Positions 246 to 19,385 of a stretch of 35,657 nt of DNA are shown piece after piece. This DNA comes from Bacteroidota bacterium. Lineage in GTDB: Bacteria > Bacteroidota > Rhodothermia > Rhodothermales > DATKEJ01. A program made the translations under genes and the position numbers. The notes beneath the pieces were generated by a model, which had not been told where the DNA came from, searched no databases, and saw only the letters and a program-made list of their open reading frames with translations. Location of the stretch: assembly GCA_038749615.1 (NCBI GenBank), contig JBCDHV010000001.1, positions 1-35,657 of the forward strand. The letters are read 5' to 3'. The first letter of the stretch is position 1. Each line of letters starts with the position of its first letter.

Positions 246-1550
246 CTAGGCCGGTAGACCAGCCCTCGGCGAAAAGAGGAAGTCCGAGATCGAGGCCGGA
301 TCGCTTGCAAGCGCCCGGGTCTCGGTTTCGCTCAGGTGTGGGCAGTGCCACGCGAGCACGGCCGCACGCTTGCCCACCGGGTCGGCCTGGAGCCGCCGGC
401 GAGCCTGTTTGACGTAGGCCGCCGTCTGGTTGATGTTCGAGTGCCCGAGCTGGTCGGCGATGTCGAAGGCGGAGAAGGCGAGGTCGGCGAGATCCGTCGC
501 GTAGCCGTCGCGCAACTGGTGAAAGCTCGTGTCCGTGAGGCCTGCGAGTTGCCGGCAGCGCGCGAAAGCATTGGTGAGGGTTGGGGCCGGCACGCGCGTT
601 CGGTTCTCGCGCATGAAGACCGGGGCCATCGGATCGTCAGCTGGCATCCGCTCCATCTCCGTGCGAAGCGCGAGGGCGGCACGCGGAGAGAGCAGGACAT
701 CGCGCTCGCGGGCGACTTTGGTCACAAACGACTCCGGACGCAGCTCGCCAGCGCGCACGTACGGGCTTGACTCTCGGCTCCAGTGGCGCACCTGCACGTA
801 GCCCGATGCGTGGCCGGCGAAGAAGACGCTCCCTCGGTTCAGAAACACCAGCTCGCTGCGGCGCAGACCAGTCGCACGAGCGACCTCGAAGGCCGCTTGG
901 AGGACAGGCCGGTCGAGACGCTCGTAGATGCGGCGGAAGTCGGCGAGCGAAACCGGTCGGTTCTTCTTCGACTGCACGCTCCGGCGCTCGAGCAAGCTGG
1001 AGCCGGTCAGGTAGTCCGCCTGAAACGCCTTGGCCGGGTTCGTGTCGCACCAGCCCTTGCGAACGGCGATCTCGAAGAGCTGCCGCACGCAGCGGCTGTA
1101 GGTCGCGATCGTGTGCGCGCTGCGAGGCGTTCCGAGCAGCCACTCGCGCACGTGTTGAGCGGTGACGTGGCGCACCGGCGTGTCAGCACCAGCGGGGAGA
1201 CGAGCGCACAGGCTCCGGAACGCGGTCTGCCGGGCTTTCAGGCTCGCCGGCCGCTGGCGCTGAAAATACCGATTCGTCTCCTCGTGCACCTGGGCCAGGG
1301 AGACGGACTTCTTGACGGGATTCCACGGATCGTAGTCGCCGCGGAGCCAGTCGAGCTTGAGTTTGCGGTACTTCTCGACGGCAAACTCGATGTCGTGCTG
1401 CGAGATGTCGCCGAGGTCGACTTCGCCCATGCGCCGGCGTACCCGTACCGGGTGGCGGTCTGGATCCTCGAACGTACCGTAAATCAGGTTGCCTTGCCGG
1501 CCGCGGTAGAGCATGCCGCGGGGCAGTTTGGGGCGTTTCGTCTTTCCCAT
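246..1550 (-). CDS. int: Tyrosine recombinase / phage integrase
   Basis: Lies in ORF 246..1604; I start it at the ATG of MGKTKRPKLP (1550). Catalytic-domain motifs are TGLRRSELVFL (Arg), HQLRDGYATDLA (HxxR) and LGHSNINQTAAYV (His...Tyr). Confidence 0.9.
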   Translation of the reverse strand: MGKTKRPKLPRGMLYRGRQGNLIYGTFEDPDRHPVRVRRRMGEVDLGDISQHDIEFAVEKYRKLKLDWLRGDYDPWNPVKKSVSLAQVHEETNRYFQRQRPASLKARQTAFRSLCARLPAGADTPVRHVTAQHVREWLLGTPRSAHTIATYSRCVRQLFEIAVRKGWCDTNPAKAFQADYLTGSSLLERRSVQSKKNRPVSLADFRRIYERLDRPVLQAAFEVARATGLRRSELVFLNRGSVFFAGHASGYVQVRHWSRESSPYVRAGELRPESFVTKVARERDVLLSPRAALALRTEMERMPADDPMAPVFMRENRTRVPAPTLTNAFARCRQLAGLTDTSFHQLRDGYATDLADLAFSAFDIADQLGHSNINQTAAYVKQARRRLQADPVGKRAAVLAWHCPHLSETETRALASDPASISDFLFSPRAGLPA

Positions 1551-1555
1551 AGGTA

Positions 1556-1593
1556 TGTGTGCGTTTGATGTCTGATGATAACAAACGCACACA
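1556..1593. promoter_or_regulatory. Perfect 12-bp inverted repeat (TGTGTGCGTTTG-N14-CAAACGCACACA) in the int / dprA-like divergent intergenic region
   Basis: Arms at 1556-1567 and 1582-1593 are exact reverse complements. The repeat sits 6 nt upstream of the int start codon on the minus strand. Confidence 0.45.
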
Positions 1594-1608
1594 AATGATT
1601 GCACAGGT

Positions 1609-2820
1609 GTGCCGGCTTCGTTTGGCCGGACGGTTACTCAGATGTATAATTCGGCAATGGTCCAACCCGTCACCACATTGAGCGCTTCAGCAGACAAAAA
1701 CGGACTGCAGATTGGCCTTTTCGACGATGCGGAAGGGCTTCGAGCAGGCTTGCTAGGCTTGTCACAGACCCCAGGGGTCGGCTTGCAGTCGCTCAAGAAG
1801 CTTTACCGCACTGGCTTTTTTCTCGGATTGCCATCCGCTCCAGTTGAGGATCTTGTTGAGCGGGCTGTAAAGGTTCTCTCTGGGGCGAGCTTGGAAGGTG
1901 TACGAGAAGCACTTGGCAACAGAGAGAAGGTCATGCAGCGAGGCCGCAAGGTGCTCGGTGAGCTTCGTGCTGCTGAAATTCATGTCACTTTTGAACACGA
2001 GAAGTCGTTTCCTCGCCGTCTTCGAGACCTAGCTGAGCCTCCGCTTTGGATTTTTTACAGAGGAAGCTTGAAAGCGATATGGTCCAGAACCGCAGTCGCG
2101 CTCATAGGCACGAGAAGCCCCTCCGATTTTGGGGCCCGGCTAGCTTTAAACTGTGGATTTCATCTAGCTACGCGTGGCCATGTGGTTCTCTCGGGTCTTG
2201 CCCGGGGCATTGATCAGGCAGCGCACGAAGGGTGTCTGGAGGCAGGCGGCATCACCGTTGCTGTTCTGGCACAGGGACTTGCTTCGGATCTGTCAAGTAC
2301 AGCCAAATCGCTTGCCAACGAGGCAGTTGCAAACGAAGGAGCAGTCGTCTCTGAGTATTTGCCTTTTGATCCGCCTAACCGGTCAGCTTTTCTGCGTCGC
2401 AACGAGATTATTGCCGCTCTCGCTCGCTTGGTTGTGCCCGTTGAGTATCCGGAAGTCCAGAGTGGGACCGGTGCTACCGTTCGGCGAGCAATGGCGATAA
2501 AGCGTCCGTTGGCCGGAATTTCGAGCAGTCGCTTCGAAGGGCCAGCATCTGAAGCGACTCAACGCAACTTGAGGAGCGCAGGCATTACAGTCTACGATCT
2601 CCATAACGGCGAGGCTGAGCGCTTCTGGACGCATGTAGCGAAGCTCGTGGATGCTCGCGAGGCAGCCGAGAACAGACGAACTTTGCTTGGCCGGCGTGCT
2701 GAGCATTTTGCCCGCCTGCTTGCAATCGAGGCTAAGTCGCGCTCCATGGATCCAGGCGAAATCGATTCGTTCTTGGATCTTCTTACGAAAGCAGTTCGGA
2801 GGAGCATTGCCGGTGATTAA
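1609..2820 (+). CDS. DprA/Smf-like (SLOG Rossmann) protein; ShosA-like
   Basis: Motifs match the DprA Rossmann core: LIGTRSPSDFGARLA...VVLSGLARGIDQAAHEG...GITVAVLAQGL...SEY...FLRRNEIIAAL. An N-terminal HhH/SAM-like LGLSQTPGVGLQSLKKL is also present. The start is uncertain (GTG 1609, ATG 1642 or ATG 1657). Confidence 0.8.
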   Translation: MPASFGRTVTQMYNSAMVQPVTTLSASADKNGLQIGLFDDAEGLRAGLLGLSQTPGVGLQSLKKLYRTGFFLGLPSAPVEDLVERAVKVLSGASLEGVREALGNREKVMQRGRKVLGELRAAEIHVTFEHEKSFPRRLRDLAEPPLWIFYRGSLKAIWSRTAVALIGTRSPSDFGARLALNCGFHLATRGHVVLSGLARGIDQAAHEGCLEAGGITVAVLAQGLASDLSSTAKSLANEAVANEGAVVSEYLPFDPPNRSAFLRRNEIIAALARLVVPVEYPEVQSGTGATVRRAMAIKRPLAGISSSRFEGPASEATQRNLRSAGITVYDLHNGEAERFWTHVAKLVDAREAAENRRTLLGRRAEHFARLLAIEAKSRSMDPGEIDSFLDLLTKAVRRSIAGD

Positions 2821-3952
2821 GCTACTCGTCACCGATGGAGACGGAACCCTATTCGCTCCGAGTGAAGCGGACTACCTGGGCGATTTTCGTGTATGGCTAA
2901 GGCAAGAAGGGATTGCGCTTGGGGTTGCTAGCAATGGACAGCGAGGAGTGATTCTCCGCCGGTTTGCCGACCACGGGATTAGTCCTCCAGACTACATCGT
3001 CACTCGGGCAGATGTGGGCAATAAAAAAAAGCCGAGCCCTGCTTTTGTTGATAAGCTGATGGAACAGGCAGGCGTAGAGCCAAGAGAGACTGCTTACATT
3101 GGAGATGACGAGAGAACGGATAACTATTTGGCTATCAATTCGCGAGTCATGCCACTGCTGGCAAGGTATTCGGAGGGCTACAGTGGCAAGTACGCATTTC
3201 CGATTAGCTCGCTTTATGGGTTGAAGCGTTTCTTAGAGGTCTTCGGCCGTCAGCCTGCTCCCTACTTTGGGTGGGTGTGCAAGAGTGACAACTATGACTT
3301 CCGCGCTGTAATCAGCCAGCACTCCCGCATAGGAAGCCAAATGCGAGCGGTTCTCAAGGAGCACCGCGACGTGCAAGTGGGTCCGGGAATGAGCCTGCGA
3401 CCCCTGCTGTTCTACTACACACTTTCGCAGTGCTACTTGAGTGGTGCACACGATGGGAAACGACTCATCGCCGTCTATCCTGGCAGTCAACCCAAGCGGC
3501 CCAACTCCACGCTGGCTGAGTTTGGTGAACTTTTCGACCTGACCTCGCAATCCAACTACCTTACAGATCTCCTAATCCGTGAGAAACCCGCCCCAGAACA
3601 GAAGAAGGCTGGAGTCCGGCGGTCGTTTGGTCCGCAGCTCGAGACCGTTCGCCTAAACGATGCGCACAAGAGGAGAATCAGTGGAAAGAGCGTGTTGGTA
3701 CTCGACGACTACACAACGTCTGGCGTGAGTCTGGCTGTCGCCCATGCACTTCTCAAGCAAGCAGGAGCAAGCAAAGTGATCGGCGTAGCCATCGGTAAAT
3801 TCCGAAACAAGCAGCGCGTCGTGAAGCTGCCGGCGAGCTACGACCCCTTCCGTGTCATGTCAGCTGGCACCAGGCTTGAAGAGGACGTACTCGATGGCGT
3901 GCAGCACGCCGAAGCTGATCAGCATTTCTACGACCGGGTCATTTCCGCGTGA
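2813..3952 (+). CDS. HAD-like phosphatase domain fused to a phosphoribosyltransferase (PRTase) domain; ShosT-like
   Basis: GTG 2813 is preceded by GGAGGAG and overlaps the upstream stop (GTGATTAA). HAD motifs are VTDGDGTL (DxDxT), GVASNG, KKPSP and YIGDDERTD. The C-terminal PRPP loop is SVLVLDDYTTSGVSL. Confidence 0.75.
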   Translation: MIKLLVTDGDGTLFAPSEADYLGDFRVWLRQEGIALGVASNGQRGVILRRFADHGISPPDYIVTRADVGNKKKPSPAFVDKLMEQAGVEPRETAYIGDDERTDNYLAINSRVMPLLARYSEGYSGKYAFPISSLYGLKRFLEVFGRQPAPYFGWVCKSDNYDFRAVISQHSRIGSQMRAVLKEHRDVQVGPGMSLRPLLFYYTLSQCYLSGAHDGKRLIAVYPGSQPKRPNSTLAEFGELFDLTSQSNYLTDLLIREKPAPEQKKAGVRRSFGPQLETVRLNDAHKRRISGKSVLVLDDYTTSGVSLAVAHALLKQAGASKVIGVAIGKFRNKQRVVKLPASYDPFRVMSAGTRLEEDVLDGVQHAEADQHFYDRVISA

Positions 3953-4015
3953 GATACTGAGACAAAAAAGCCTCTCTTGTCAGGATAGTGAAACCCCCAC
4001 CGTTATCTGGACAGA

Positions 4016-4459
4016 TCAATCCAAGAAGGGCGGTTGGTTCCAGTGGCGGCCCACTGCACCCTCACTCCATTTTGGTAGCTTTCTTCCCTGATAGATTGCC
4101 ACGAGATCGTTTCCACAGGTAGACGTATAAGATTTTCCTTTGTGATCTTCGTACGTAGACCCGATTCCTGTTGTGTTTACGTGGCCAAGCCACTTGAGCA
4201 AAAATACAGACCCTTTGGCCATTGGCGGGATTCGCACAGGATTAAACCAGGATCCGGAGGGGTTCTTCTGAGCCACTACAACGTTGAGTGCGGGACCGTT
4301 TCCTATGTTATGGATACGCCAACCGGTATCTCCGTCATATTCTATTGAGAGCACGGGTACTATCCGAGACCTGAACGAGCGAAGCGTCTGCCAAAATGAG
4401 AGAGCAAACGAAACAAGTGAGAGGATAAAAGCAGGAGCAATCAAGGTCTCGAAATCCAT
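4016..4459 (-). CDS. Small membrane-anchored protein (N-terminal TM helix plus beta-rich domain), unknown function
   Basis: 147-aa ORF in low-GC DNA. The N-terminal hydrophobic helix is LIAPAFILSLVSFALSFW. It is convergent with the PRTase gene. Confidence 0.55.
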   Translation of the reverse strand: MDFETLIAPAFILSLVSFALSFWQTLRSFRSRIVPVLSIEYDGDTGWRIHNIGNGPALNVVVAQKNPSGSWFNPVRIPPMAKGSVFLLKWLGHVNTTGIGSTYEDHKGKSYTSTCGNDLVAIYQGRKLPKWSEGAVGRHWNQPPFLD

Positions 4460-4517
4460 CTTTTTTGGACAGGTCGTGCTAGGTACAAGCGAGATCGCCC
4501 GCCGGCTTCGCCTTTAA

Positions 4518-4540
4518 CCGGCAGCGTCCGGGGCTGCCGG
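4518..4540 (-). terminator. GC-rich hairpin (8-bp stem CCGGCAGC/GCTGCCGG, 7-nt loop) downstream of the HD-GHKL gene
   Basis: The stem was read directly from the sequence. The flanking U-tract is weak on both strands, so a terminator function is tentative. Confidence 0.3.
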
Positions 4541-4764
4541 GTTTCGGCCAGCAAGCGTGCATCGTTCGCTAGCTCGCTGATGGGCTCAGCGTTGCCCTCG
4601 TGTCCGTGGAGCCGGCTCGTGACAGTCTCTGCTGAGGGGAGCGACGTGAAGTGGCATGTCTCGCTCCTCTGGTACCGGCGCTGTAGATGCCGGCGGGTCT
4701 CGGGCGTAATTCTGTTTGCCAGCTTGTGGCTAAAAAAGCAGCTATCCCAACGTTGGGTGGTGGT

Positions 4765-7389
4765 TCAGTTTTCGGAGTTTAATATCCTATTTAAGTCTAG
4801 AACACCGAATGCATACCATTTGTGCCGCGTACTTGCAGACACTTCATCCATGGGCCTCACACGCCAATCGATCTGATGCGACAAATCTTCGATGTGGACC
4901 GAGAGGACGCGAGCTGCCTCTTCAAGGAAAAAGTCGAACAAAAGGTTTTTGTTGGTTTTAGGCAGTTGCTTTGTATTCATGCCGTCAGGGGAATTTCCAA
5001 ACGATTCCACATCGTCATTTGAACTTTGAGTAGCCTTCCATTGATGTTCAATTATCAAGACGTTGTCCGGGATCGGGATGAACACTGGCGCTTGATTTGA
5101 GACGAAAAACGGGTGTACAAAAACTATCTCTTCGTGCTGCAGAAAATCTGAAATGTTGGATTTACATATGGCGCCAGAACGTGTAAGCGCGAATGCTAAA
5201 TCGCCTATGTCGCCTCCAAAGGCGCTAATTTTTTCTGCTACCTCGATCTGCGTGCGAATCGGAAGACGTAAAGCCTCAGCGAGGCGGGCTTGCTCGGTAG
5301 CCCATGTTGCATAAATGGTCATATCTCCCATTAGCGCAGCCTGATTTCTGGCGGCTACACTCGGCACACTCTTTAGCACGCCCTGAAACTGAAGCGAATC
5401 GGACGCTCTGAATCCCCCAGTGGTAAGCAAGCCCCTGTCAGCGGATCTGGAGCTCGCGTTGCCGTCCTCGTCCTCATCAAAGAATGTAGGAATAGCAATG
5501 CATGCTCTTCCTAAATTGTCATCCAAGATGCGCAGTCGTGCCCCGTCTCTATCACGCTCCTTTTGGATTGACCCGCCAGAGTCGATCCGGTCAAGCAGAG
5601 TCTGCCCCTCAATACTGAGCCAGTCGTTTGCTTTCACCGCAAGAGTCAATTCGCCCTCATCGGCGTAGAGGTCGACATCCAAAGTTGGGCAAAGCCATGC
5701 GCAACATTGTGCAAGCGTGAATGTGGAGTGTCGCGCACGCGCAACTAAGAGTCCCGAATTCGCCGGCGACAGGCCATCGCGAAACCACACCCTGACGACT
5801 GTACCGGCATCAAGCAGTTCAGGTGTGACGTTGCCGGTTTTCAGAATAGGCCGGGTCCCGAGACCACCGGTAAATTCCAGTGTGAGCGTCTCGCTGCTTG
5901 CGCGGTCCGGCCGGCGTGTGACAACCCGGACGTGGTCACCCCACATGAAGACGGAGAAGAAACCAATGCCAAACTGGCCGGTGGCCTCAAACCCCTTGCG
6001 CTCCAAGCCGGGCAGCTCCGCATGCATGAGCGACGATCCCCAGAACGAGGTGCTAAAATCCAAAAAGGGTCCCGTCAGCACGTCGACCGACATACCGATA
6101 CCTGTGTCCTTAACCTCAAGCCAGTGGCCGTCGTCGTCTTGGCCAGTGTGGACGACGATGTGCCCCCAGTCGTTTTCTCTGGATTCGAGCAGCCGCCGGG
6201 CACGCACGGCGTCGGCTGCGTTCTGAATCAGCTCACGGAGAGGGACCGTAGGGCTGTCTCCGTAGAGTTTCTCGCCCCCCAAGGCAGAGATGAGGGAAAC
6301 GACATCACTCACCTGCACGCGGGCGTCGACGGGCAGCCAGCCGTTTGTGCGGACGAGCTGCGCGAGGCTTTCGGGGGCGTCGGTGTAGGCGACGCTCCGA
6401 GCTGCTAGCCGAGGCCGGTCCGTGTCGGCAAGCAGCGTGTCGGTTCGGCGCAACTCTTGGTCGACCATGCGGAGCGTGTCCGCGCAGAGCCACCACGCCT
6501 CTGCCTGGGCTTCCTCGAAATCGCTGCTCGAGGTGTACTCGAGCCGGTCTCTTTCGAGCCTGGGCTGATTGAGTTTGGCCTGAAACGTCCAGTGATCCGC
6601 GCTGTAGCCTTCAGGCCGGCGGAGCGCGTGAAGGAAGGGATCTGCCCGCCGCTTGTCCAGGTGGCTGGCGTCGGCCGTGCGGAGCATACAGGCGAGCTTG
6701 ACGGGATCGATCGTCCACCTCCTATTGAATCCCCCAGGCGCTCCTATTCTCGAGGGGAAGCCCCTTGCGATCTGATCGATAGGCCACCAATGGCTGTGGG
6801 CGATCCGGCCGATCAGCGAGCCGTAGCTGCTCCGGAGGTTCGCATCCTCAATCAGGTGGAGGGTGCCGCCGGCCGGGTCTGGCCACGAGACGAGCGCGAG
6901 CCGCTCGGCCTGCTCAGCGTGCCGCATCCGCAGCACGTGCTCGGTTGCGCGCTGGGCGATCTCAGCCGGCGGATCCTTGATCTGCTCCTCGGTAGCCGGC
7001 CGGCCGTGTTCGCGCCGGAGCATGCCGGCCACCGTGTCGAGCCAGAGGTCCGAGCTCTTCAGCTCCTCAATGCCGGCCGGGTAGGCAGCCAATCCCAGGC
7101 CGAGGTCGTGGATCAGGAAGGCGCCGCCGAGCACGTACGCCTCAGCCGGGGTGATGGGGTAATCGTCGCCGGCGATCAGGTCTGCCATCTCCCAGAGCGC
7201 GTCGATGTGCGTGATATCGTGGACCGTGAAGTCGGGGAGGTCACGACCGATCTCGGCAGCCAGCGTGGCGGCTCGCTCTCTGAAGCGCTCGAAGCTGGTA
7301 CGCAGGCGAGTGCGGTTGCTCTCTTCAGGGTCGCCCGTCCGCTGGGCCAGCGTTCTGTGCCAGAGATTCGTGTTCGCGTACCGGGACAT
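4765..7389 (-). CDS. HD-domain plus GHKL (Hsp90/MORC-type) ATPase protein, 874 aa
   Basis: The N-terminal HD-type dyads are FTVHDITHIDALW and AFLIHDLGLG. The central Bergerat fold shows LRELIQNAADA (N box), EVKDTGIGMS (G1) and TGQFGIGFFSVF (G2). Confidence 0.85.
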   Translation of the reverse strand: MSRYANTNLWHRTLAQRTGDPEESNRTRLRTSFERFRERAATLAAEIGRDLPDFTVHDITHIDALWEMADLIAGDDYPITPAEAYVLGGAFLIHDLGLGLAAYPAGIEELKSSDLWLDTVAGMLRREHGRPATEEQIKDPPAEIAQRATEHVLRMRHAEQAERLALVSWPDPAGGTLHLIEDANLRSSYGSLIGRIAHSHWWPIDQIARGFPSRIGAPGGFNRRWTIDPVKLACMLRTADASHLDKRRADPFLHALRRPEGYSADHWTFQAKLNQPRLERDRLEYTSSSDFEEAQAEAWWLCADTLRMVDQELRRTDTLLADTDRPRLAARSVAYTDAPESLAQLVRTNGWLPVDARVQVSDVVSLISALGGEKLYGDSPTVPLRELIQNAADAVRARRLLESRENDWGHIVVHTGQDDDGHWLEVKDTGIGMSVDVLTGPFLDFSTSFWGSSLMHAELPGLERKGFEATGQFGIGFFSVFMWGDHVRVVTRRPDRASSETLTLEFTGGLGTRPILKTGNVTPELLDAGTVVRVWFRDGLSPANSGLLVARARHSTFTLAQCCAWLCPTLDVDLYADEGELTLAVKANDWLSIEGQTLLDRIDSGGSIQKERDRDGARLRILDDNLGRACIAIPTFFDEDEDGNASSRSADRGLLTTGGFRASDSLQFQGVLKSVPSVAARNQAALMGDMTIYATWATEQARLAEALRLPIRTQIEVAEKISAFGGDIGDLAFALTRSGAICKSNISDFLQHEEIVFVHPFFVSNQAPVFIPIPDNVLIIEHQWKATQSSNDDVESFGNSPDGMNTKQLPKTNKNLLFDFFLEEAARVLSVHIEDLSHQIDWRVRPMDEVSASTRHKWYAFGVLDLNRILNSEN

Positions 7390-7692
7390 CGGCTCTCGCT
7401 CTGCTAAGTTGGTGGGACGTGTTGCGGCCGGCCCGTTGGTGGTGTGGCTAGTCGGCTTGGTAGGGGAGGGACGTCCAGCGGCACCACCTCAGCTACTCCT
7501 CGTCCGGCGCCGGCATCTTGTATTTCGGCCTGAGACAGACAGAGCCGTGTGTTGGCTTGGGCGACTAGTCTGGTGGAGCCGAAAAGCTAAGGTGTCCGAA
7601 TGAGCCCGGGTTCCATCCAATGAGGCACAGCGTTAATCAGACAAAAGTAGACTTCGGATCGTAATCAATAACGCTACAAGTGAGGCAGTAGT

Positions 7693-9579
7693 CTAGAGCA
7701 TGGGGTTATCCAAGTCCTCCTCCGAGTAGTTCATTTCCTTGAGAAGATCTTCAATATTGGTTTCCATGCCAGAGAGGAGCCGGTCAAGAACACGGTCGTA
7801 ATCATCCTCCAGCTTACCGAGGCGCTGCCGCACGCGCGTGCGGCGCACCTCAATGGCCCGAAGTCGCTCATTGTACGATTTTATCTTACCGTCGTAGCTG
7901 CCCGAAGACTCTAGTTTTTCTAGTTTTGTAGCTTCAAGACTTGCAATCTCATCCAAAAGCGACTGGTGCTTTTTTATTAGATGAATGCTAATGTTCTCAC
8001 CTGGAGATAAAGTGATTATACCTTCAACCTCCTCAAGCTCAGATCGAAGACTTTTAGTCATAGCATCGATTTGGTCAATAGATCTTGAGAAAGCTTCAGA
8101 TTCGCTGATGATAGCGTCAAGTTGCAGCAGGGCGGAGTCATATGCGTCGTCCTCTTGAGCAATCCTGGTTCTGGTGTCGCCTATTGCTGCCTGGATTTTG
8201 TTCAATAGAGCATCAGTCTTAGAGTCGGCATGTGCTTCGTCTTCCTCTACTCTAAGACGGATCTCGGCTCTTTGCTTATCGAGCTTCTCCCGCTTCTCTT
8301 TTTCAGCAGCGTCGTTTTCTCTTTTCTCATCCCTCGCCCTTTGGCGGGCTCGTCGAGATCTTTCGGCTTCGTCTAAGAGCGATTTGTCTCTACGAGCTTG
8401 TGCCTTTTTGAGGTCGAACTCGTTAAGCCATTCTTCAAAATCATAGTCGCGTAAAGGCGATCTTGAGTAAGACCGGTTCTCTTCATATTCGATATACTCA
8501 TCGTAGGCGCCTTGTATGTACCTTTCCCACCTGCTCTGGAGATACCCGTTCAGGTATAGCCTAATTGCGTGTGGCTGCAGCAATTTTATCAGAATCGTTG
8601 AAAGGAACATCCCGTAAAGCAGCAGGATGGCTAGTCGCTCGGCCTTTTGATATGCATTATTTGAGCCCATGAGCTCGATCTGGATCTGTCGATTCGCAAA
8701 TGATCCAACTAGGGAGGGGACACCGTAGGTAGTCACCAGAGAGTCGTAAGGCATGCCTTTGATTCTCGCCGACTCTGAATTGAAGAGAGAATCAATGGCG
8801 CTCAGCTCAATCTCCTTGGCCTTGATGTTCTGTTCCATGGAGATGGCAACGACACTCCTTCCATAAGACCGAGATCCCCCGGTGCCATTAATTTCTGCAG
8901 TAAGACTGTCTCTGAGTGCATCGAGAGAGCTGGTGAGTTTAGCCTTGCGGTCAGCATTTCTAGACCGGAGAGTGTCAACGAGCACTCTCCTTTGCTCGCC
9001 ACGCTTCTCGGCCAAGGCAGCGTCTATATCCTCAGTGATCAGTATCTGAGCTAGGTATGGAGCAGTTATGAACGTGAAGCCAAGCAGGACGCCAATTCGA
9101 AGCGAAACTGCCAAGAACAGCTTTAAAGATTCACCAGACGCAAGACTATATATGCGGGCAAAAATGGAATCCAAGTGTTCTGGCTTGCCCTCCCTGTCTT
9201 CCTGGGCCAAATAAGACGGTTTCGAGAAATCGCTGGTTATGAAGGTGGAATCGATAAACCATATCATTCCAGCAACAACTAGCCCAACGGCTACACCAGA
9301 GATCCACCTGCCAGCCGTACTTTCAAAAGGCAAAATATCCTGAACAATGATCGTCCAGGTAAAGCCTTCTATGATCGCCATGGCAATGGCTAAAAACGCC
9401 ATAGCCCCTAGCCATGCTCCTGCTAGCGGTAGTAGATTCTTCCTTCCATGGGGACGCATCAGCAAGGTTCGCCTGAATCGCTCCCCTGTCGAAGGTTCGT
9501 CCCGAGTCAAATCCGGGTGCTGCGTTTCCTTAGCGCTACGGTGTTCCATAATTCCCCGCGAAGTATCAAATAATTCCAC
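7693..9579 (-). CDS. Multi-pass membrane protein with internal and long C-terminal charged coiled coils (DUF4407-like)
   Basis: Four hydrophobic helices are visible (LAGAWLGAMAFLAIAMAII, ISGVAVGLVVAGMIWFI, LFLAVSLRIGVLLGFTFI, LAILLLYGMFLSTILI). The motif EINGTGGSRSYGRS is present, followed by about 250 aa of E/K/R-rich heptad-like sequence. The start is GTG 9579 or ATG 9549. Confidence 0.75.
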   Translation of the reverse strand: MELFDTSRGIMEHRSAKETQHPDLTRDEPSTGERFRRTLLMRPHGRKNLLPLAGAWLGAMAFLAIAMAIIEGFTWTIIVQDILPFESTAGRWISGVAVGLVVAGMIWFIDSTFITSDFSKPSYLAQEDREGKPEHLDSIFARIYSLASGESLKLFLAVSLRIGVLLGFTFITAPYLAQILITEDIDAALAEKRGEQRRVLVDTLRSRNADRKAKLTSSLDALRDSLTAEINGTGGSRSYGRSVVAISMEQNIKAKEIELSAIDSLFNSESARIKGMPYDSLVTTYGVPSLVGSFANRQIQIELMGSNNAYQKAERLAILLLYGMFLSTILIKLLQPHAIRLYLNGYLQSRWERYIQGAYDEYIEYEENRSYSRSPLRDYDFEEWLNEFDLKKAQARRDKSLLDEAERSRRARQRARDEKRENDAAEKEKREKLDKQRAEIRLRVEEDEAHADSKTDALLNKIQAAIGDTRTRIAQEDDAYDSALLQLDAIISESEAFSRSIDQIDAMTKSLRSELEEVEGIITLSPGENISIHLIKKHQSLLDEIASLEATKLEKLESSGSYDGKIKSYNERLRAIEVRRTRVRQRLGKLEDDYDRVLDRLLSGMETNIEDLLKEMNYSEEDLDNPML

Positions 9580-9738
9580 TCGCGAAACATGTGGAAGATC
9601 CCGTTGCTTTCAAACGTGTGATCCAATAGAAGCGGTCTGCACTCGAGGTTCTTGCATCGCATATCCACCCGGCATTCAAACCAACCACAGAATAACACAT
9701 AAAGCCGAGGATGTCACGGCAGTGATCGCGCGATCGCG

Positions 9739-9787
9739 AGCAGCCAGTCGTAGAGCGCGCTACCCAGGCCGCCGGCGACTGGCTGCT
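9739..9787 (-). terminator. 12-bp GC-rich stem (AGCAGCCAGTCG / CGACTGGCTGCT) with 25-nt loop, about 30 nt downstream of the DUF1353 gene stop
   Basis: The inverted repeat was read directly. There is no U-tract. The 12-bp palindrome GATCGCGCGATC lies adjacent at about 9724-9735. Confidence 0.3.
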
Positions 9788-9815
9788 TGATCCTTCTACT
9801 GATCTATTTTCATGC

Positions 9816-10529
9816 TCAGTCGTAACTCAGTCCGCAGTGGCGTCTGTCTGCAGGTAAGCTGAACTGCCTAGTTCCTTTGCCTCGCAAGTGCTCTCGCAAG
9901 CGAAGCCAGTCTCCGTCATACGTCCAATTTGATAGCGGTACGACTTTGACATATCCCTTCTTTCTATCGTTCTGGTTCTCTCTCCACGCGTTTCCCCCCG
10001 CTGCTCTCAGCGCGGCGTAGACTGCCCATATCCGATCTGGTCTGACTTGAAGATCTTGCATTGCAGCTCGCATGACCTTGTCCGCAGTCTCACGGTCTTC
10101 ACATTCCTGGGTCCAATAGAGATAATCGTGGATAATAGCGGCACGCTTATGCTTGCCAGCAACAGATACGTACGACCTTACACGTGGTGGTACGCTTGTC
10201 AAGTCGGTAACAAACCCTGCTGGGACAACGATTTTCTCTCCTCTGGTACCAACTTCGTAGATCATATTCTGAGCAAGCATCCAGAACTTTCCGTCCCTAA
10301 AGTCTAACAGCGCCGCCCTTGTAGGTGGTTTTCGATATGGGTCGTTAAGGTCAATTAGGTACAAATCGTCGTCGAGAAAACTCGCGCTGTCAGCAAGTGA
10401 GGTTACATAAAGCCAGAACATTTCTTTTGAAGAACTTTCACGGGGATAACTAATTTCCCTGTAGGCACACCCTGATAGCCATAGGACACATGTAAAAGCT
10501 AGAGTTACAGTAAGCGTGTACTTTCTCAT
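9816..10529 (-). CDS. DUF1353-family lipoprotein
   Basis: The start is at MRKYTL, with a signal peptide and lipobox (VLWLSGC). The DUF1353 signature is GFVTDLTSVPP...AAIIHDYLYW. Confidence 0.8.
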   Translation of the reverse strand: MRKYTLTVTLAFTCVLWLSGCAYREISYPRESSSKEMFWLYVTSLADSASFLDDDLYLIDLNDPYRKPPTRAALLDFRDGKFWMLAQNMIYEVGTRGEKIVVPAGFVTDLTSVPPRVRSYVSVAGKHKRAAIIHDYLYWTQECEDRETADKVMRAAMQDLQVRPDRIWAVYAALRAAGGNAWRENQNDRKKGYVKVVPLSNWTYDGDWLRLREHLRGKGTRQFSLPADRRHCGLSYD

Positions 10530-10820
10530 GGCAAGAATGGTCGGCACGCAGCACAAAGAGTAGGAGGGGCAAGCCTAACAGGTTTCCTACTGGCATTCTA
10601 ACGACTGATGTTGAACTTAGTCAAAGGCGTTCGGGATTGATTAAAAAATATACAGCCGGCGCAATAGACCGGAAAACCCCGGCATCCGGCATTTCAGCAC
10701 TGGCCGGCTAGTCGAGGTAAGTCTCCGGCCCATCGAGTTCAATCAGGAGAGAGTCGATGGCGTCTAGTGGCGGATCGTCGGGACGCGTGGTGCCGGTGAG
10801 GTGCCGGCGGGTGAGGAAGG

Positions 10821-10857
10821 TCACCGGCTCACCAGCCGGCTCATCTGCTGGGTGATG
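10821..10857. repeat. Direct-repeat copy A: orphan remnant of a repressor 3-prime end (minus-strand frame ...SITQQMSRLVSR-stop)
   Basis: 32/37 identical to 12767-12803, with 24 nt identical (10834-10857 = 12780-12803). The remnant frame is closed after 14 codons by the YbjQ gene stop at 10866-10868. Confidence 0.8.
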
Positions 10858-10865
10858 CTGGTTAC

Positions 10866-11918
10866 CTACGAGTGCGTCAAAACCCGCGTGAGGGCATCGG
10901 CCCTGTTGAGCAGCCGGTTGATTACTACTGGTGGGGATACGTAAGAAGAAGGAACGCCGTACACGTCTCGCCGGCAGGTTGAGCAGCGGACGTCTTCCTC
11001 ATGAAAGCTTGCTCCGCACGCACCGCACAGGCGGACCACGACCTCTTCTTTTGAAAACATGCCCACGGTGCGTTGTTCGTTCACCACGGTCACAGGGAAT
11101 TGCTGCTCGACCAGCTCGGCGACTCTGCGCATGGGATTGATGTCGCCGGCTCCGTAGCTGCGCTTGGCTGCACCCGCAGCGGTAAGCCCGTTCAACCGTA
11201 CCTCTTCGTCTTCGCTCATCAGAAGTGGCCGGATGCGCCCTGGATCGAACAGACGGCCTTGCTCGACGACGATGCGCCCGAGCTCACCTGCGGAAAGCAC
11301 CGGACGCGCTAGCCAACCATAGACCGCCTCCTTCGCCGCCTCTTCGGGAAGCGCAAGAACGTATTTGATGATGGGGCCCGGGTTATCCTTATCAAGTCGC
11401 CGCCTGCTCTGCGCCAGCTCAGCGTTGATTTGCGGCAAAGCTGCTGGCGACCGGTGTTTGGCTGCAAAGGCGAGGTCACGCCTAGAGAGCGAGGACGTGT
11501 TTGCTGCTATCTCGGCAAGACGCATTTGAACCCCGAGAGCGTCAGCGTCTATGCGACTCGGTCTGTTCGGCTGGTCAGCGGGCGTGTCTAGCGTTACTGC
11601 TGTACCAGAAGCGGTCACCATGAACATGCTTTTGCCGCCCCCTGAGACCTCGTCAAAATCGACACGCACACCCACAACTGCGTGGGCTCCGCGATCCAGA
11701 CCAGCGTCGGCAAGCTGGTCAAGGACTTCCTTGTTGATCGAGGCCAACTGCTTGTGGTACGACTGGGATCGGCCACCGAACACGTCGCTGAAGCTTGCCG
11801 CCATGTCAGCAAAAAGATTCGTGCCGGCAACGACGTAGGCCGAAACTACTCCGAGGTACCCGGTAATGCGTGCGCCTTCGACGTGTGGAGTTGTGGTGAC
11901 GATGATTGGGGAAGCCAT
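10866..11918 (-). CDS. YbjQ (UPF0145/DUF74) domain protein with helical middle region and C-terminal zinc ribbon
   Basis: The first ~105 aa align with E. coli YbjQ as I recall it (TTP.VEG..I..YLGVV...G.N.F.D......GGRS.SY.K.L...GA.AVVGV..D...V....MFMV.ASGTAV). The C-terminus carries CGACG...CSTCRR. It is the last gene of the minus-strand lysogeny operon. Confidence 0.85.
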   Translation of the reverse strand: MASPIIVTTTPHVEGARITGYLGVVSAYVVAGTNLFADMAASFSDVFGGRSQSYHKQLASINKEVLDQLADAGLDRGAHAVVGVRVDFDEVSGGGKSMFMVTASGTAVTLDTPADQPNRPSRIDADALGVQMRLAEIAANTSSLSRRDLAFAAKHRSPAALPQINAELAQSRRRLDKDNPGPIIKYVLALPEEAAKEAVYGWLARPVLSAGELGRIVVEQGRLFDPGRIRPLLMSEDEEVRLNGLTAAGAAKRSYGAGDINPMRRVAELVEQQFPVTVVNEQRTVGMFSKEEVVVRLCGACGASFHEEDVRCSTCRRDVYGVPSSYVSPPVVINRLLNRADALTRVLTHS

Positions 11919-11982
11919 GCAGAGAAAAAAAACTGATAAGGCAGGTTTGAAACAGTGGCGAGATCCTGCAAGGCCCGTCGGC

Positions 11983-12747
11983 TCAGCGGCTGGGGAAGAG
12001 TTGCTGCTGCACCGCGCCGGCCATGCTCGTAATCGCCTCCTTCACTTCGCGCATCAGCATTTGGGAAACTTGCCGGCGTGGCCACAAGACAGGGCCAACC
12101 ACACGAAAGTCCACCTTCCGTCCGGTCTCTTGCTGAATGAGTGTACCGTCGTTACCTGGGGTGAGTACTTCGTCACGGTAGCCGGTGGAGCGGTTGTCGC
12201 ATTTTAGCACGAGACTACCATCACTGAGACGCTGGACCCGCCTAAGAATGAGGCGTCCATTGACTTCGAGAACGTGGCGACCCGAGCCGGCAATGCGGTC
12301 GGAAGCTCTGTAGAAGACCACGTCACCTTCGGTTGCACTTGGCTCCATGCAGTCGCCAGTCACGGCCCAGATTCCAATCTGTCCACCAAGCTCTATCCCG
12401 AGCACGGTTTGCAGGACGTAGCGATGCAGAAAGATCTCTTCAGTCTGATCTGACCCTGTGAGCCGGCGGTCGCAGACAGTGATCGCTACGTACGCATCGC
12501 TCGGAATTGGCCGCCGAGCGGAAGAGACCACGCTTGCAACTTCGCCTTCAGCTAGCCACTCGAAAGACACTTCCAATACGTGGGCATACAGAGCAAGCGC
12601 TCGGTTTGGAACGGGGTACTTCCCGGATTCATGTCGAACCACGCTGCGTAGATGCATCCCAGTCTTGTCCGCTAATTCGGACTGCGTCAGTGATCGGCGC
12701 TTCCGAGCTTTTTTCAGGCGGACAGAAACAGGGGACTCAGAAGGCAT
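11983..12747 (-). CDS. CI/LexA-like HTH-XRE plus S24-fold protein with substituted catalytic dyad (Ser to Cys, Lys to Arg)
   Basis: The HTH is RRSLTQSELADKTGMHLRSVVRHESG. The S24 region reads GDCMEP instead of G(D/T)SMEP, and LILRRV instead of VKRL/VKRI. Confidence 0.85.
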   Translation of the reverse strand: MPSESPVSVRLKKARKRRSLTQSELADKTGMHLRSVVRHESGKYPVPNRALALYAHVLEVSFEWLAEGEVASVVSSARRPIPSDAYVAITVCDRRLTGSDQTEEIFLHRYVLQTVLGIELGGQIGIWAVTGDCMEPSATEGDVVFYRASDRIAGSGRHVLEVNGRLILRRVQRLSDGSLVLKCDNRSTGYRDEVLTPGNDGTLIQQETGRKVDFRVVGPVLWPRRQVSQMLMREVKEAITSMAGAVQQQLFPSR

Positions 12748-12766
12748 GAGTGCGAAAGCGTCAGCG

Positions 12767-12803
12767 CTACCGGTTTACGAGCCGGCTCATCTGCTGGGTG
12801 ATG
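12767..12803. repeat. Direct-repeat copy B: genuine 3-prime end of the CI repressor gene (...TITQQMSRLVNR-stop)
   Basis: This is the partner of 10821-10857, 1946 bp away. Confidence 0.8.
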
Positions 12804-13504
12804 GTTGAGAGGATCGCCTGAGGCGTGTCCGGCGGAAAGACGACCCGGCCGCGAACGTTGACGCGCAACCGCAGGTCGTTGTCGTCGTCGCTGTACATGT
12901 CTTCACCCAGCGGTCGCAGCGTGCGGGTGACGTGAGCCGGATTGTCGCTCACCACCTTGATCGCGCCGCCTCCGAGCTTCTCGATGCGCTTGACCTCTTC
13001 GCCGTCGTCGTCGTCGAAGTAGAGCACGTAGCGGCCGGCGGCTGTGATGCCGTGGACCACCTCGACAAGAATGGGAGTGCCGTCGGGCAGCCACGGCTCC
13101 ATCGAGGTGCCACGCACCCTCGTCCAGTACGCCTCATCGGAATCGAGCGTGCGGCCACTCGTCCATGCCTTCAGGACGTCCACCGGGGTAATGATGTATT
13201 CGCCCGTGTCCTCTTGCTCTTGGCCCGGGCCGGCTCCGACGCCGCCGGCAAAATATCGATGCCGGACAACGCTGGAGGTACCTTCAGTCAGGCTTTCGGA
13301 GTGGCCGTTTGAGAGAGTTTGTTCGCCTTCTCCAATGGAGTGAAGCAGCCAGGCCCTTTTGTTTTTAGGAATTCTTCCGCCCAGATAATTCTTGAGCGTG
13401 GAGACTGAAATCTTGAGAGAGACGGCTGTCTCCTCTTGGTTTAAGCCCTTCTCTAGCATCCACGATCGAAGTAGAGCAGAGATTTTATCAGGTGAAATAG
13501 TCAA
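12767..13504 (-). CDS. CI-type prophage repressor (HTH plus intact S24 autopeptidase domain)
   Basis: The HTH is LNQEETAVSLKISVSTLKNYL. The S24 Ser motif is VRGTSMEPW and the Lys motif is EEVKRIEKL. The apparent start is TTG at 13504. It is divergent from an RHH gene. Confidence 0.85.
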   Translation of the reverse strand: MTISPDKISALLRSWMLEKGLNQEETAVSLKISVSTLKNYLGGRIPKNKRAWLLHSIGEGEQTLSNGHSESLTEGTSSVVRHRYFAGGVGAGPGQEQEDTGEYIITPVDVLKAWTSGRTLDSDEAYWTRVRGTSMEPWLPDGTPILVEVVHGITAAGRYVLYFDDDDGEEVKRIEKLGGGAIKVVSDNPAHVTRTLRPLGEDMYSDDDNDLRLRVNVRGRVVFPPDTPQAILSTITQQMSRLVNR

Positions 13505-13593
13505 TTTTAGACATTTTGATATTGCGTAGGGGCCTAAATTTGGCTATTCTACGGGTGCAAGAGCTATCTGTTACACCCTAAAGATATCAGGCC
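13505..13593. promoter_or_regulatory. Divergent immunity-switch intergenic region with candidate operator half-sites
   Basis: It lies between the CI gene (minus) and the RHH gene (plus). An imperfect inverted pair TGATAT-N3/4-TAGG occurs at 13517-13530 and 13577-13589 (reverse complement). GGGTG-N16-CACCC occurs at about 13553-13578. Confidence 0.35.
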
Positions 13594-13773
13594 ATGCCTA
13601 CGGATCAAATCATAGTTCGCGTTTCGAGGACGGAGCGCGAACGGATTGAGCGGGCCGCAGAGATCGACAGGCGGTCTCGCAATCAGTTCTTGAGAGTCCA
13701 CGGCCTCGAAAAAGCCGAGCGTGTGTTGCGCGAAGCCGGCGAACTCGAACGCGAGGAGGCCGGCGATGCCTAG
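13594..13773 (+). CDS. Ribbon-helix-helix (CopG/Arc-like) protein, 59 aa; positional Cro analog
   Basis: It is not in the ORF track because it is under 60 aa. My translation is MPTDQIIVRVSRTERERIERAAEIDRRSRNQFLRVHGLEKAERVLREAGELEREEAGDA, which has a beta-strand/helix/helix pattern. Its stop overlaps the next start (ATGCCTAG). Confidence 0.6.
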   Translation: MPTDQIIVRVSRTERERIERAAEIDRRSRNQFLRVHGLEKAERVLREAGELEREEAGDA

Positions 13774-14083
13774 GAAAGCGACGAGCTACAAGCGGGCCGA
13801 AGAGCTGATGGCCGGCGATGTCTTACAAGTTGTGCCCTTCTGTTTCGCGACAGTGACACGGGTCATCCTTGACGAGACGCACGCCGAGGTGTCGCTAGAG
13901 ATTGAGACGACGCTACCGGCAGATGGCATCGAGATCACGATGCCAGTCGAGCGCGGACAGATCGTCACGATCTACGGCGAGGACTCAACACCATTGCCCA
14001 ACAGGGCAAACGGGCCGGTCCCCGGCCCTAAATCGCCCGCAATGGCGACTCACGACGGGCGGGGAGTTCGCCCGTCTACCTAA
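13766..14083 (+). CDS. Hypothetical early protein (member of the small AGD-motif paralog set)
   Basis: I use an internal ATG of ORF 13721..14083 that is coupled to the RHH stop. The motif is EELMAGDVLQVV. Confidence 0.55.
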   Translation: MPRKATSYKRAEELMAGDVLQVVPFCFATVTRVILDETHAEVSLEIETTLPADGIEITMPVERGQIVTIYGEDSTPLPNRANGPVPGPKSPAMATHDGRGVRPST

Positions 14084-14167
14084 AACGAACGCCAGCACCC
14101 TGAGCCTGAGAAACTGGGGTGCCGGCGAGCCGGGCCGAGATCCGGCCCTCAAACCGAGAGGTCTAGA

Positions 14168-14407
14168 ATGAGCATACGAAGACTAGCACGAATGAGCAAA
14201 CGATGGCGCAAGGGCGGGCTCCGGCCCACCCCAGAGCGCACGGGCGACGGCCGGCGACGAATCAGGGTAGGGGACTACGTGAGTTTCCAGCAATGGATCG
14301 GAGGTCGAGGCTACGTCTGGACCTACCGCGTCGGTACGCTGCTGATGACCGAAGAAGAGTTCAACCGCCGGTATGTCGTGGCCGGAAGTGTGCGGGGGGC
14401 GGCATGA
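14168..14407 (+). CDS. Hypothetical early protein, 79 aa
   Basis: The ORF has an ATGA overlap with the next gene. The motif is IRVGDYVSF. Confidence 0.55.
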   Translation: MSIRRLARMSKRWRKGGLRPTPERTGDGRRRIRVGDYVSFQQWIGGRGYVWTYRVGTLLMTEEEFNRRYVVAGSVRGAA

Positions 14408-14628
14408 TGATCCAAGGACCTGAAATCAGAGCCGGCCAGCTCGTGCGCCTGCCGTCGTGGAGCTATCCGCTTCGTGTCACGGGCGTCGAGCACGAGGGCT
14501 CGATGACATGGCTCGTCGGCGAGTTCGTCGGCGAAGGAGCCCCTGAGGGCCGGCGTGAGCGCGTGATTCTGCCGGACATGTACGTCGAACTAGCGCCGGA
14601 TGCCGGCGCTGGGGAGGTGCCGGCATGA
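14404..14628 (+). CDS. Hypothetical early protein, 74 aa
   Basis: ATGA overlaps occur at both ends. The motif is IRAGQLVRL and the protein ends in EVPA at the conserved junction 17-mer. Confidence 0.55.
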   Translation: MMIQGPEIRAGQLVRLPSWSYPLRVTGVEHEGSMTWLVGEFVGEGAPEGRRERVILPDMYVELAPDAGAGEVPA

Positions 14629-14912
14629 GTCTAAAAACTGAGCACATCAACGAACGGGCGATCCGGCTTGGCGACGGGGCGCTTTATGTCCCCTCGGAAG
14701 ATGCGGAGTTCGTGTCGATCGATATCCATAGTGATGTCGCTGTGCACACGGAAGAGCCCGAATTCACGGCTGCGACAGGCCTATGGTGGTCGTCTGACGA
14801 GATCGAAGTTGGATACGTGGACCCTGAGGTGGCCGCTGCTGAACTCTACCGCATTGTCCGGTATCAGTCGGGCCGGCTGCACCGCCTCGAACGAGTGGAG
14901 GTGCCGGCATGA
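14625..14912 (+). CDS. Hypothetical early protein, 95 aa
   Basis: It starts and ends in the conserved GGAGGTGCCGGCATGAG junction. Confidence 0.6.
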   Translation: MSLKTEHINERAIRLGDGALYVPSEDAEFVSIDIHSDVAVHTEEPEFTAATGLWWSSDEIEVGYVDPEVAAAELYRIVRYQSGRLHRLERVEVPA

Positions 14913-15148
14913 GTCAGTACCGCAACACGAAGCCGGCTCGCGAGCTGGCCGCCGGCGATCTGGTCTTCGTCCACGCCTGTGATTTGATCTCCGGCGTCAT
15001 CATGGAGATCGTCACGGTGGATAGCGACCCGCCGGCACCGAGCATCGCCAGCGTGGCGAGCGCGCGGGCGTTCTTGGTCAACATCGACGCAGACGCTGAG
15101 GTCGAACTCGTCGGCACCGTACGCGAAACGGAGGTGACGGATGGCTAA
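14909..15148 (+). CDS. Hypothetical early protein, 79 aa
   Basis: It starts at the junction 17-mer. The motif is ELAAGDLVFV. Confidence 0.6.
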   Translation: MSQYRNTKPARELAAGDLVFVHACDLISGVIMEIVTVDSDPPAPSIASVASARAFLVNIDADAEVELVGTVRETEVTDG

Positions 15149-17620: not shown

Positions 17621-17796
17621 GCAAGACGAAGACGTTCCAGGCAGACGCCGGCAAGCCTGGCGGTAATGGGCTGCGCCTCGTTGTCGAGACGGCTGAGGAC
17701 CCGACCGTCAGAGAGTTGCAGCGGAGCGGGTTGAGCCGGTGCCGGCGGCTGACTGAGCTAGCGAAGAAGAAAGCAAACGAGGGGGGAAAGCGATGA
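17617..17796 (+). CDS. Hypothetical protein, 59 aa
   Basis: It starts at the third copy of the junction 17-mer and has an ATGA overlap with the next gene. Confidence 0.5.
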   Translation: MSKTKTFQADAGKPGGNGLRLVVETAEDPTVRELQRSGLSRCRRLTELAKKKANEGGKR

Positions 17797-18062
17797 GCAC
17801 AGAAGAACTCATTCTGCGCGAACTCCGCTTTCTTCGCGGGGAGGTCCGCACCATGCAGGAGCGCCTCGGTCTTGCGCTGGTAGGGCCGGCGGAGGCTCGC
17901 AAGATCCTGGGTATTGGGCGCTCGACGCTCAGCGAATGGGTGCGCAAGGGGAAGCTGGAGGCCGTTCTCCAGAATGGCAAACGGATGTACCGGATGCAGG
18001 ATTTGGAGGAGGTGCGCAACACGAAGAACAAGCACCACCGAAGGAGCCGGAGGGTGCGGTAG
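17793..18062 (+). CDS. Excisionase/AlpA/MerR-type HTH DNA-binding protein
   Basis: The motif is EARKILGIGRSTLSEWVRKGKLEAV...YRMQDLEEV. Confidence 0.65.
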   Translation: MSTEELILRELRFLRGEVRTMQERLGLALVGPAEARKILGIGRSTLSEWVRKGKLEAVLQNGKRMYRMQDLEEVRNTKNKHHRRSRRVR

Positions 18063-18106
18063 GACCTGAATCGCCCTGATTGGCAGGGCATGACCACACA
18101 ACGACA

Positions 18107-19040: not shown

Positions 19041-19070
19041 CGGATAACGAACACCTAACGGAGACGACCC

Positions 19071-19340: not shown

Positions 19341-19385
19341 AATTATCCGCAATCTTGGCCGAAAGTGTCAACTTATCCGAATCCT

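Follow-up and report, generated by a model that had tools for sequence, protein, structure and literature searches.

The window analysed here is a whole contig of 35,657 nucleotides (nt) from the metagenome-assembled genome (MAG) of a Bacteroidota bacterium, and it has most of one temperate phage on board, the tail genes being lost at the contig end. Between the integrase gene (int) and the repressor operon of this phage, positions 1540 to 10680 are a compositionally foreign mosaic of cargo genes. This island (~1540–10680) was probably acquired horizontally, as several unrelated cassettes that entered the int–repressor slot of a novel temperate phage. The cassettes would be a ShosA/ShosT abortive-infection system, a protein with a single transmembrane (TM) helix, an HD plus Hsp90-like ATPase (HD-ATPase), a coiled-coil protein with four TM helices, and a DUF1353 lipoprotein. 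Islands of this type are already known, as prophage hotspots for defence and other cargo and as morons; the specific contents, and the apparently chimeric HD-ATPase gene among them, are new.

The boundaries of the island were obtained by penalised optimal-partition segmentation of GC content along the window. The segments are as follows:

1–1540: 64.7% GC
1541–5760: 53.5% GC
5761–7580: 64.8% GC
7581–10680: 49.2% GC
10681–22740: 61.1% GC
22741–35640: 64.4% GC

The phage backbone has a GC content of ~63%, close to that of the host: 1-kb windows from the other contigs of the MAG have a mean of 62.2% (standard deviation 2.6) and fall below 52% in just 0.3% of cases. Windows in 1.5–6.0 kb and 7.5–11.2 kb have a tetranucleotide distance to the host that is equalled or exceeded by only 0.2–1.3% of 1079 host windows, while tetranucleotide content is typical of the host in 5.25–7.5 kb and from 10.5 kb to the contig end. 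The island thus differs in both GC and oligonucleotide content from the host as well as from the remainder of the element, with a host-like break at 5761–7580. The GC content of third codon positions (GC3) is 0.49–0.60 in island genes and 0.75–0.83 in backbone genes.

An earlier sequence-only reading of this DNA had described the segment as a mosaic accessory island and proposed a GC and k-mer analysis, which confirmed the mosaic and placed the low-GC blocks among the most atypical ~1% of host windows. Its block limits were right to ~100 bp (1540, 5760, 7580 and 10680 by segmentation). The alternation of GC that it reported is real, but some of its values were not: 1.6–4.0 kb, which holds shosA and shosT, is at ~55% rather than 45–52%, and the high-GC blocks, given as 65–72%, average ~65%, with 300-bp windows peaking at 69.7%. 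The block at 5.7–7.6 kb that it called backbone-like is actually the 5′ portion of the gene for the HD-ATPase, 500 codons in length, together with ~200 bp upstream.

The features of the island and of its two anchors are as follows:

246–1604, minus strand: tyrosine integrase gene int, the left anchor (Pfam Phage_integrase 1.4e-15, PHROG_1 2.5e-31)
1556–1593: near-perfect inverted repeat with a 12-bp stem, in the 58-bp divergent int/shosA gap, at the left composition boundary (1540)
1609–2820, plus strand: ShosA, DprA-like antitoxin of 403 amino acids (aa) (PADLOC ShosA 1e-59; Pfam DNA_processg_A 2.3e-48)
2813–3952, plus strand: ShosT toxin, 379 aa (PADLOC ShosT 1.2e-28; Pfam HAD_2 8.1e-11, Hydrolase 5e-9, Pribosyltran)
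4016–4459, minus strand: 147-aa protein with one N-terminal TM helix (aa 5–23), GC3 0.51
4480–4720: short block of 241 bp at 64.7% GC, within the 305-bp gap (4460–4764) that separates the 147-aa gene from the HD-ATPase gene's 3′ end
4765–7389, minus strand: HD-ATPase, 874 aa (Pfam HD-CE, PF24391, 2.5e-54; HATPase_c_3)
7693–9579, minus strand: DUF4407-like membrane protein, 628 aa, with four TM helices and a ~240-aa C-terminal coiled coil
9816–10556, minus strand: DUF1353 lipoprotein, 246 aa (Pfam DUF1353, PF07087, 1.1e-23; PHROG_1158)
10823–10857: orphan copy of the last 12 cI codons, 35 nt, 91% identical to 12769–12803, near the right boundary (10680)
10866–13504, minus strand: repressor operon, the right anchor (Pfam and PHROG matches; GC3 intermediate, 0.61–0.72), consisting of the three genes that follow
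10866–11918, minus strand: YbjQ-fusion gene
11983–12747, minus strand: HTH-S24 paralogue of cI
12767–13504, minus strand: cI (HTH-S24 repressor)

The gene content of the island is as the sequence-only reading had it, and so is the lack of phage-propagation families among its genes, with DUF1353 as sole exception (its PHROG label is 'tail assembly chaperone'). The intergenic gaps are 63, 305, 303, 236 and 309 bp.

The pair shosA/shosT is, from its sequence features, a complete and bona fide Shosta toxin–antitoxin defence pair. The best match of ShosA among solved structures is ShosA itself (8zva/9vzo, 4e-30), with canonical DprA behind at 1e-20. ShosT consists of an N-terminal HAD-type hydrolase with a DGDGT motif plus, at the C terminus, a phosphoribosyltransferase (PRTase) with a phosphoribosyl pyrophosphate (PRPP) loop, VLVLDDYTTSG, and its best PDB match is ShosT 8zvb (3e-8). 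The loop aligns to VIDDFCTEG of 8zvb, its DD falling on the catalytic DD of Escherichia coli ShosT (D331/D332). The two genes are adjacent, the probable GTG start of shosT (2813) overlapping the shosA stop (2820) by 8 nt; the true start of shosA may lie slightly downstream of 1609. Every sequence hallmark of the system is therefore present: a DprA-like ShosA, a PRTase with the acidic pair, a fused HAD-type hydrolase and adjacent genes. A P2-like coliphage has a homologous pair in the hotspot at its genome end, ordered in the same way and separated by 1 nt, and the DprA plus PRTase pair of the P2 hotspot was shown to give protection from T7 and lambda (Rousset et al. 2022, PMC9122126). The E. 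coli ShosT toxin has HAD-type pyrophosphatase and PRTase domains, and the acidic pair in its PRPP loop is essential for toxicity (PMC11961720). It binds PRPP and, with its fused pyrophosphatase, disturbs purine metabolism, and the cell is killed or arrested, while the DprA-like ShosA binds single-stranded DNA and RecA and neutralises ShosT until infection upsets the balance (PMC11961720, PMC12961424). The description of the island contents as conflict-related by the sequence-only reading therefore stands for the DprA-like/PRTase pair, which is Shosta, and is an inference for the HD-ATPase, the coiled-coil protein, the lipoprotein and the 147-aa protein. Similarly, the PADLOC scan that it proposed matched ShosA and ShosT but none of the other four genes.

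The same reading took the intergenic gaps to suggest several independently expressed cassettes rather than one operon. The independence of the cassettes is supported by their contexts in other genomes, which were compared for HD-ATPase, the DUF4407-like protein and Shosta. No tested island gene lay beside another elsewhere except shosA and shosT, the sole island genes found together outside the contig in the loci examined. None of 7 individually inspected HD-ATPase homologues had a DUF4407-like, DUF1353 or Shosta neighbour, and two contexts of the DUF4407-like family had no neighbour in common with each other or with the window.

The phage around the island has no close relatives in the collections searched. 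Megablast of both contig halves against 50,697 phage records gave no match. The integrase gave just ~22–28% matches to Lactobacillus and faecal phages by tblastn against INPHARED, no relative at E ≤ 1e-10 in a 5.8-billion-protein set and, across 60 related genomes, no match better than 1e-9. Neither int, cI nor the replication initiator had a relative in IMG/VR, and cI had none in GTDB genome contigs or JGI metagenomes. Terminase relatives at ~48–59% identity were found in two genomes of the same order, on contigs that share packaging genes only and end before any lysogeny module. The YbjQ gene was also tried as an alternative anchor and rejected: it retrieved 69 viral contigs that share only this gene with the window. 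At one IMG/VR locus (L123, ~10001–10936) and 16 others (L122–L190), the YbjQ-fusion genes are 84–98% identical to each other in DNA, and in many of these loci the DNA directly downstream is unrelated, forming a mosaic junction at the equivalent position. The end of homology after YbjQ in these unrelated phages may parallel the island edge, by analogy only.

At the left edge, the composition change falls within the first codons of int, whose likely start is the ATG at 1550, giving a 434-aa form (the source's own gene call). The inverted repeat at 1556–1593 folds at −23.2 kcal/mol (z = −2.8) and may be a putative operator or terminator. At the right edge, the orphan copy of the cI end lies just past the YbjQ gene, so that the direct repeats at 10823–10857 and 12769–12803 bracket a cassette of cI paralogue plus YbjQ gene, which has an intermediate GC3 of 0.61–0.65. 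The orphan copy is the trace of an earlier recombination in which this cassette was also acquired or duplicated, so that the mosaic arguably reaches as far as 12.8 kb. All genes on the minus strand, from cI down to that of the 147-aa protein, point the same way, and transcription could therefore read through from the repressor operon.

We also considered that int and the 9-kb cargo could together form an element of their own, a small integrative defence islet or satellite that inserted next to the prophage. In Tenacibaculum, one HD-ATPase homologue and an integrase are indeed immediate neighbours in a mobile element that is not a phage and carries ArdC, no excisionase was found beside int, and a second integrase is possible at the far prophage end, the contig being cut at both ends. 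However, int is backbone-like in composition (GC3 0.81) and stands in its expected place. The plus strand encodes a replication initiator, an amidase, a holin-like gene, the terminase large subunit, portal, protease and an HK97-type capsid, and the resulting order of int, cargo, repressor, replication, lysis and head is the standard lambdoid prophage layout. No attachment-site direct repeats were found, and none of ≥16 nt joins 1–260 to 10.6–10.9 kb. Furthermore, the island genes include no replication or primase, regulatory, or helper- or packaging-hijacking families of the type found in P4-like or PICI-like phage satellites. A separate element is thus improbable, and cargo of the phage itself remains the preferred reading.

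The two genes nearest the repressor operon encode predicted envelope proteins. The coiled-coil tail of the 628-aa protein has 42% charged residues, and its PDB matches are coiled coils only. It falls below the Pfam DUF4407 (PF14362) threshold, with 15.7 bits (E 0.0095) against 31.3; its relatives are borderline, the G020 homologue scoring 30.7 bits and another (P0123) having a precomputed PF14362 match. The protein is therefore best called a divergent member of a rare DUF4407-like family, judging by these profile scores; the family is represented among 1.84 billion proteins by 255 relatives (representative clusters), of which the nearest is 36% identical. The lipoprotein is a clear DUF1353 member (83 bits against a threshold of 22.5, covering profile positions 1–90 of 91), with a lipobox, LSGC, at aa 27–30 and a likely ATG start at aa 10. 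Because the DUF1353 domain is preceded here by a lipoprotein signal, it is predicted to be exported from the cytoplasm. A strong hairpin (z = −2.15) lies 3′ of the gene.

These genes bear on a second alternative, in which the island would serve the phage life cycle: the DprA-like protein would mediate recombination, DUF1353 would be a tail assembly chaperone, and the membrane proteins would take part in lysis or in the entry of DNA. DprA-like genes are indeed present in many phages, and DUF1353 proteins carry the label of a tail assembly chaperone or a tail fibre assembly protein in PHROG_1158 and in several phage records of GenBank. However, these labelled phage homologues match only the ~100-aa domain of the lipoprotein, which here stands behind a lipoprotein signal. 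The DprA-like protein is closer to ShosA than to DprA and is translationally coupled to ShosT, and the island genes are foreign in composition and sit on the side of the lysogeny genes, well away from those for lysis (22.7–23.8 kb) and for the head. We consider a life-cycle role very unlikely, a little more so than a separate element, and retain that of acquired cargo.

The HD-ATPase has an HD-CE phosphohydrolase domain (aa 51–315) and, C-terminal to it, an Hsp90-like GHKL ATPase that includes a middle domain (aa ~370–850). The HD-CE match scores 185 bits against a cut-off of 27 and covers profile positions 1–263 of 263; with this full HD-CE domain, the GHKL motifs and a collinear full-length architecture, the protein belongs to an HD-CE plus GHKL family. 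At least 2250 relatives of ~885 aa (870–900 aa) are distributed patchily among bacteria and archaea, from Methanosarcinales to Bacteroidota, Acidobacteriota, Firmicutes and Proteobacteria. An alignment of 48 sequences leaves H57, D58, H94 and D95 invariant in the HD domain and E386, N390, D393, D428, G430 and G432 in the ATP-binding domain. The AlphaFold2 model has a predicted local distance difference test score (pLDDT) of 83 and a predicted template modelling score (pTM) of 0.79, and in Foldseek its residues ~370–850 match the N-terminal plus middle domains of Hsp90/TRAP1 over ~480 columns (E ~1e-9). Our literature search found nothing relevant on 'HD-CE'. The start calls in a public protein collection for the HD-ATPase (640 aa) and DUF4407-like (569 aa) genes lie well inside the open reading frames (ORFs); longer N-termini are backed by homologue alignments (874 aa and ~618–628 aa respectively).

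The composition of the HD-ATPase gene changes within the gene. GC3 is 0.80 in codons 1–502 (5884–7389) and 0.52 in codons 503–874 (4765–5883), with a change point at codon 502 (log-likelihood ratio 39.5). This step, at ~5883, is the junction of the ATP-binding domain and the Hsp90-like middle region, and no comparable step was seen in 3 homologues examined. Identity to the nearest relatives is 63% in the N-terminal part and 27–28% in the C-terminal part. Other family pairs with the same N-terminal identity have 37.4 ± 3.5% in the C-terminal part, indicating that this part of the window protein is more diverged than expected. In 47 of 51 genomes the HD-ATPase homologue has a lower GC content than the DNA on either side of it, with a mean difference of 7 points; high-GC members also exist. 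The simplest reading of codon usage and alignments is that the gene is probably a recombinant of two alleles joined inside the gene. The promoter-proximal 500 codons (HD and ATP-binding) are host- and phage-like in composition and the distal 370 (Hsp90-like middle) are foreign and low in GC, which points to such an exchange. If the gene had, in addition, a new anti-phage function, the GC step would be the mark of a recent swap of a variable Hsp90-middle-like half between alleles, the way in which a gene of this type would alter what it recognises.

A metagenome assembly chimera of different organisms, offered as the source of the whole GC alternation with the HD-ATPase step, is the least probable alternative of all, even in a MAG of 697 contigs that is 85% complete with 4% contamination, and even with the step just past the GHKL motifs of strongest conservation, at which homologous genes resemble each other most: it would require at least five separate chimeric joins, intact full-length ORFs are found at every junction, and for the step in particular an artefact is unlikely because the frame, the collinearity of the 874-aa protein with its ~885-aa homologues and the single confident fold are all intact, and two alleles so unlike in codon usage (GC3 0.80 and 0.52) can hardly have in common the identical k-mers on which an assembler would join them.

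The genomic neighbourhoods of HD-ATPase homologues suggest a link to defence. One homologue lies in a defence island in an uncultured Rhodoferax (locus L028, 6725–19092). That island holds a NERD–UvrD helicase, two DUF1016/YhcG nucleases, DUF488, a Schlafen/AlbA_2 plus HATPase_c_4 protein and AbiEi/AbiEii. Another homologue is the Tenacibaculum copy described above, next to an integrase. For 36 further homologues, the two nearest genes on each side were compared with PADLOC models, giving matches to AriA, GajA/PtuA-type ATPases, AbiLi, IetA, LmuB, TRIP13 and others; by Pfam, the neighbours include three integrases, two resolvases and one restriction enzyme. It is thus suggestive that many copies lie in defence-rich neighbourhoods. 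The association is qualitative, because distant genes match PADLOC too, without a true random control: genes 6.5–10 kb away include HamA, SIR2 and PD-T4-6-type matches. Among the four uncharacterised genes, HD-ATPase is the best candidate for a new defence gene.

Taken together, a model can be proposed in which the island is expressed from the prophage and would shield the lysogen, and so the prophage, from other phages. Beside Shosta, HD-ATPase would act as a single-gene, ATP-controlled hydrolase effector, and the two envelope proteins are candidates for cell-surface exclusion. That one or more of the HD-ATPase, DUF4407-like and DUF1353 genes has a new anti-phage or superinfection-exclusion function is a tentative proposal, to which we give somewhat less than an even chance.

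Several observations weigh against this model and against the horizontal acquisition of independent cassettes. A defence role is experimentally established for Shosta alone, in E. coli homologues at ~24–30% identity, and PADLOC holds no model matching HD-ATPase, the 147-aa, DUF4407-like or DUF1353 proteins, the last of which bears the tail assembly labels given above. Five of the 7 individually inspected HD-ATPase homologues are singletons amid housekeeping genes, and the 197 PADLOC models matched by the nearest genes compare with 118 for genes 6.5–10 kb away, a comparison without a true random control. Promoter and terminator scans performed no better than on shuffled sequence. Finally, the contig is metagenome-assembled and cut at both ends, and with no int or cI relatives in the collections searched there is no related prophage to show turnover of the slot.

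The remaining features of the window are as follows. The 147-aa protein is without a match in Pfam, PHROGs, PADLOC, NCBIfam and PDB. The short high-GC block at 4480–4720 contains no convincing ORF, and none with a start codon in six frames. Neither blastn nor tblastx against the host genome gave it a significant match, and Rfam gave none; the block may be what is left of an older backbone or of junction DNA. No tRNA and no Rfam family match was found anywhere on the contig. A MazG-type nucleotide pyrophosphohydrolase is encoded at 19365–19730 on the plus strand (Pfam 9e-15), among phage early/middle genes. A second minus-strand insert, at 20850–22706, lies amid plus-strand phage genes and has a slightly low GC3 (0.64–0.68). 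Its products are a CsgG/FlgO-like protein of 337 aa, hydrophobic in an N-terminal segment, and a TM protein of 279 aa; the insert may be another moron. A 512-aa phage ORF at 23845–25383 (plus strand), of unassigned function and without a tblastn match in INPHARED, is 42% identical to a relative elsewhere in the MAG, on a different contig (C78:205–1215), which may reflect a second prophage in the same MAG.

Prophage slots beside the integrase and repressor are a proven source of new anti-phage genes. The island adds a Shosta system to a phage lineage without known relatives, and places three uncharacterised families beside it, in a setting where lysogen protection can be tested. The HD-ATPase, if chimeric as proposed, is a clean natural case of recombination within a candidate defence gene, at a domain boundary. 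As a whole, the island is an instance of a described phenomenon, and no new principle.

Temperate phages carry lysogenic-conversion morons and envelope proteins for exclusion, such as lambda rexAB, T5 Llp, phi80 Cor and P22 SieA. Like morons, the island genes are foreign in composition and lie beside the immunity region, each with its own spacer, and like exclusion proteins, two of the products are envelope proteins, one a lipoprotein and one a polytopic membrane protein. However, they have no sequence or family relationship to rexAB, Llp, Cor or SieA, and an exclusion role is putative.

HD-ATPase has the Bergerat ATP-binding motifs common to Hsp90/HtpG/TRAP1 and the wider GHKL group (MORC, sacsin), and the Hsp90 N-terminal plus middle domains are also recognised by sequence (NCBIfam HSP90 family 8e-19; PDB Hsp90 2e-10). 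Unlike the Hsp90 chaperones, it bears a fused N-terminal HD-CE domain and scores far under the chaperone model cut-offs (67 against 455 bits). Nor does it resemble a housekeeping chaperone in distribution, the family being patchy and compositionally foreign in most genomes.

The island Shosta pair has the DprA-like ShosA, the two-domain ShosT, the conserved DD and the adjacent, coupled genes of E. coli ShosTA (PDB 8zva, 8zvb, 9vzo). It differs in its low identity (E = 3e-8 for ShosT, 4e-30 for ShosA) and in length: ShosA exceeds the solved ShosA chains (318 and 331 aa) by ~70–85 aa, and ShosT is ~50 aa shorter (379 versus 432 aa).

The closest parallels to the island as a whole are prophage hotspots, one of which, between cI and the integrase, was described in K139-like Vibrio prophages, along with those of P2 and P4 (Rousset et al. 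2022, PMC9122126). The described hotspots are defined by turnover among relatives and measure ~1–5 kb (mean 3.2 kb in P2), while the island is ~9.1 kb and is known from one phage without detected relatives. This phage is not P2-like, having an HK97-type head module and lambdoid gene order. Nevertheless, its island, like those hotspots, holds cargo between phage genes, here int and the repressor operon, and includes a known anti-phage system, Shosta. The DprA-like plus PRTase pair is shared with the P2 hotspot, as is the mixing of a known system with uncharacterised genes.

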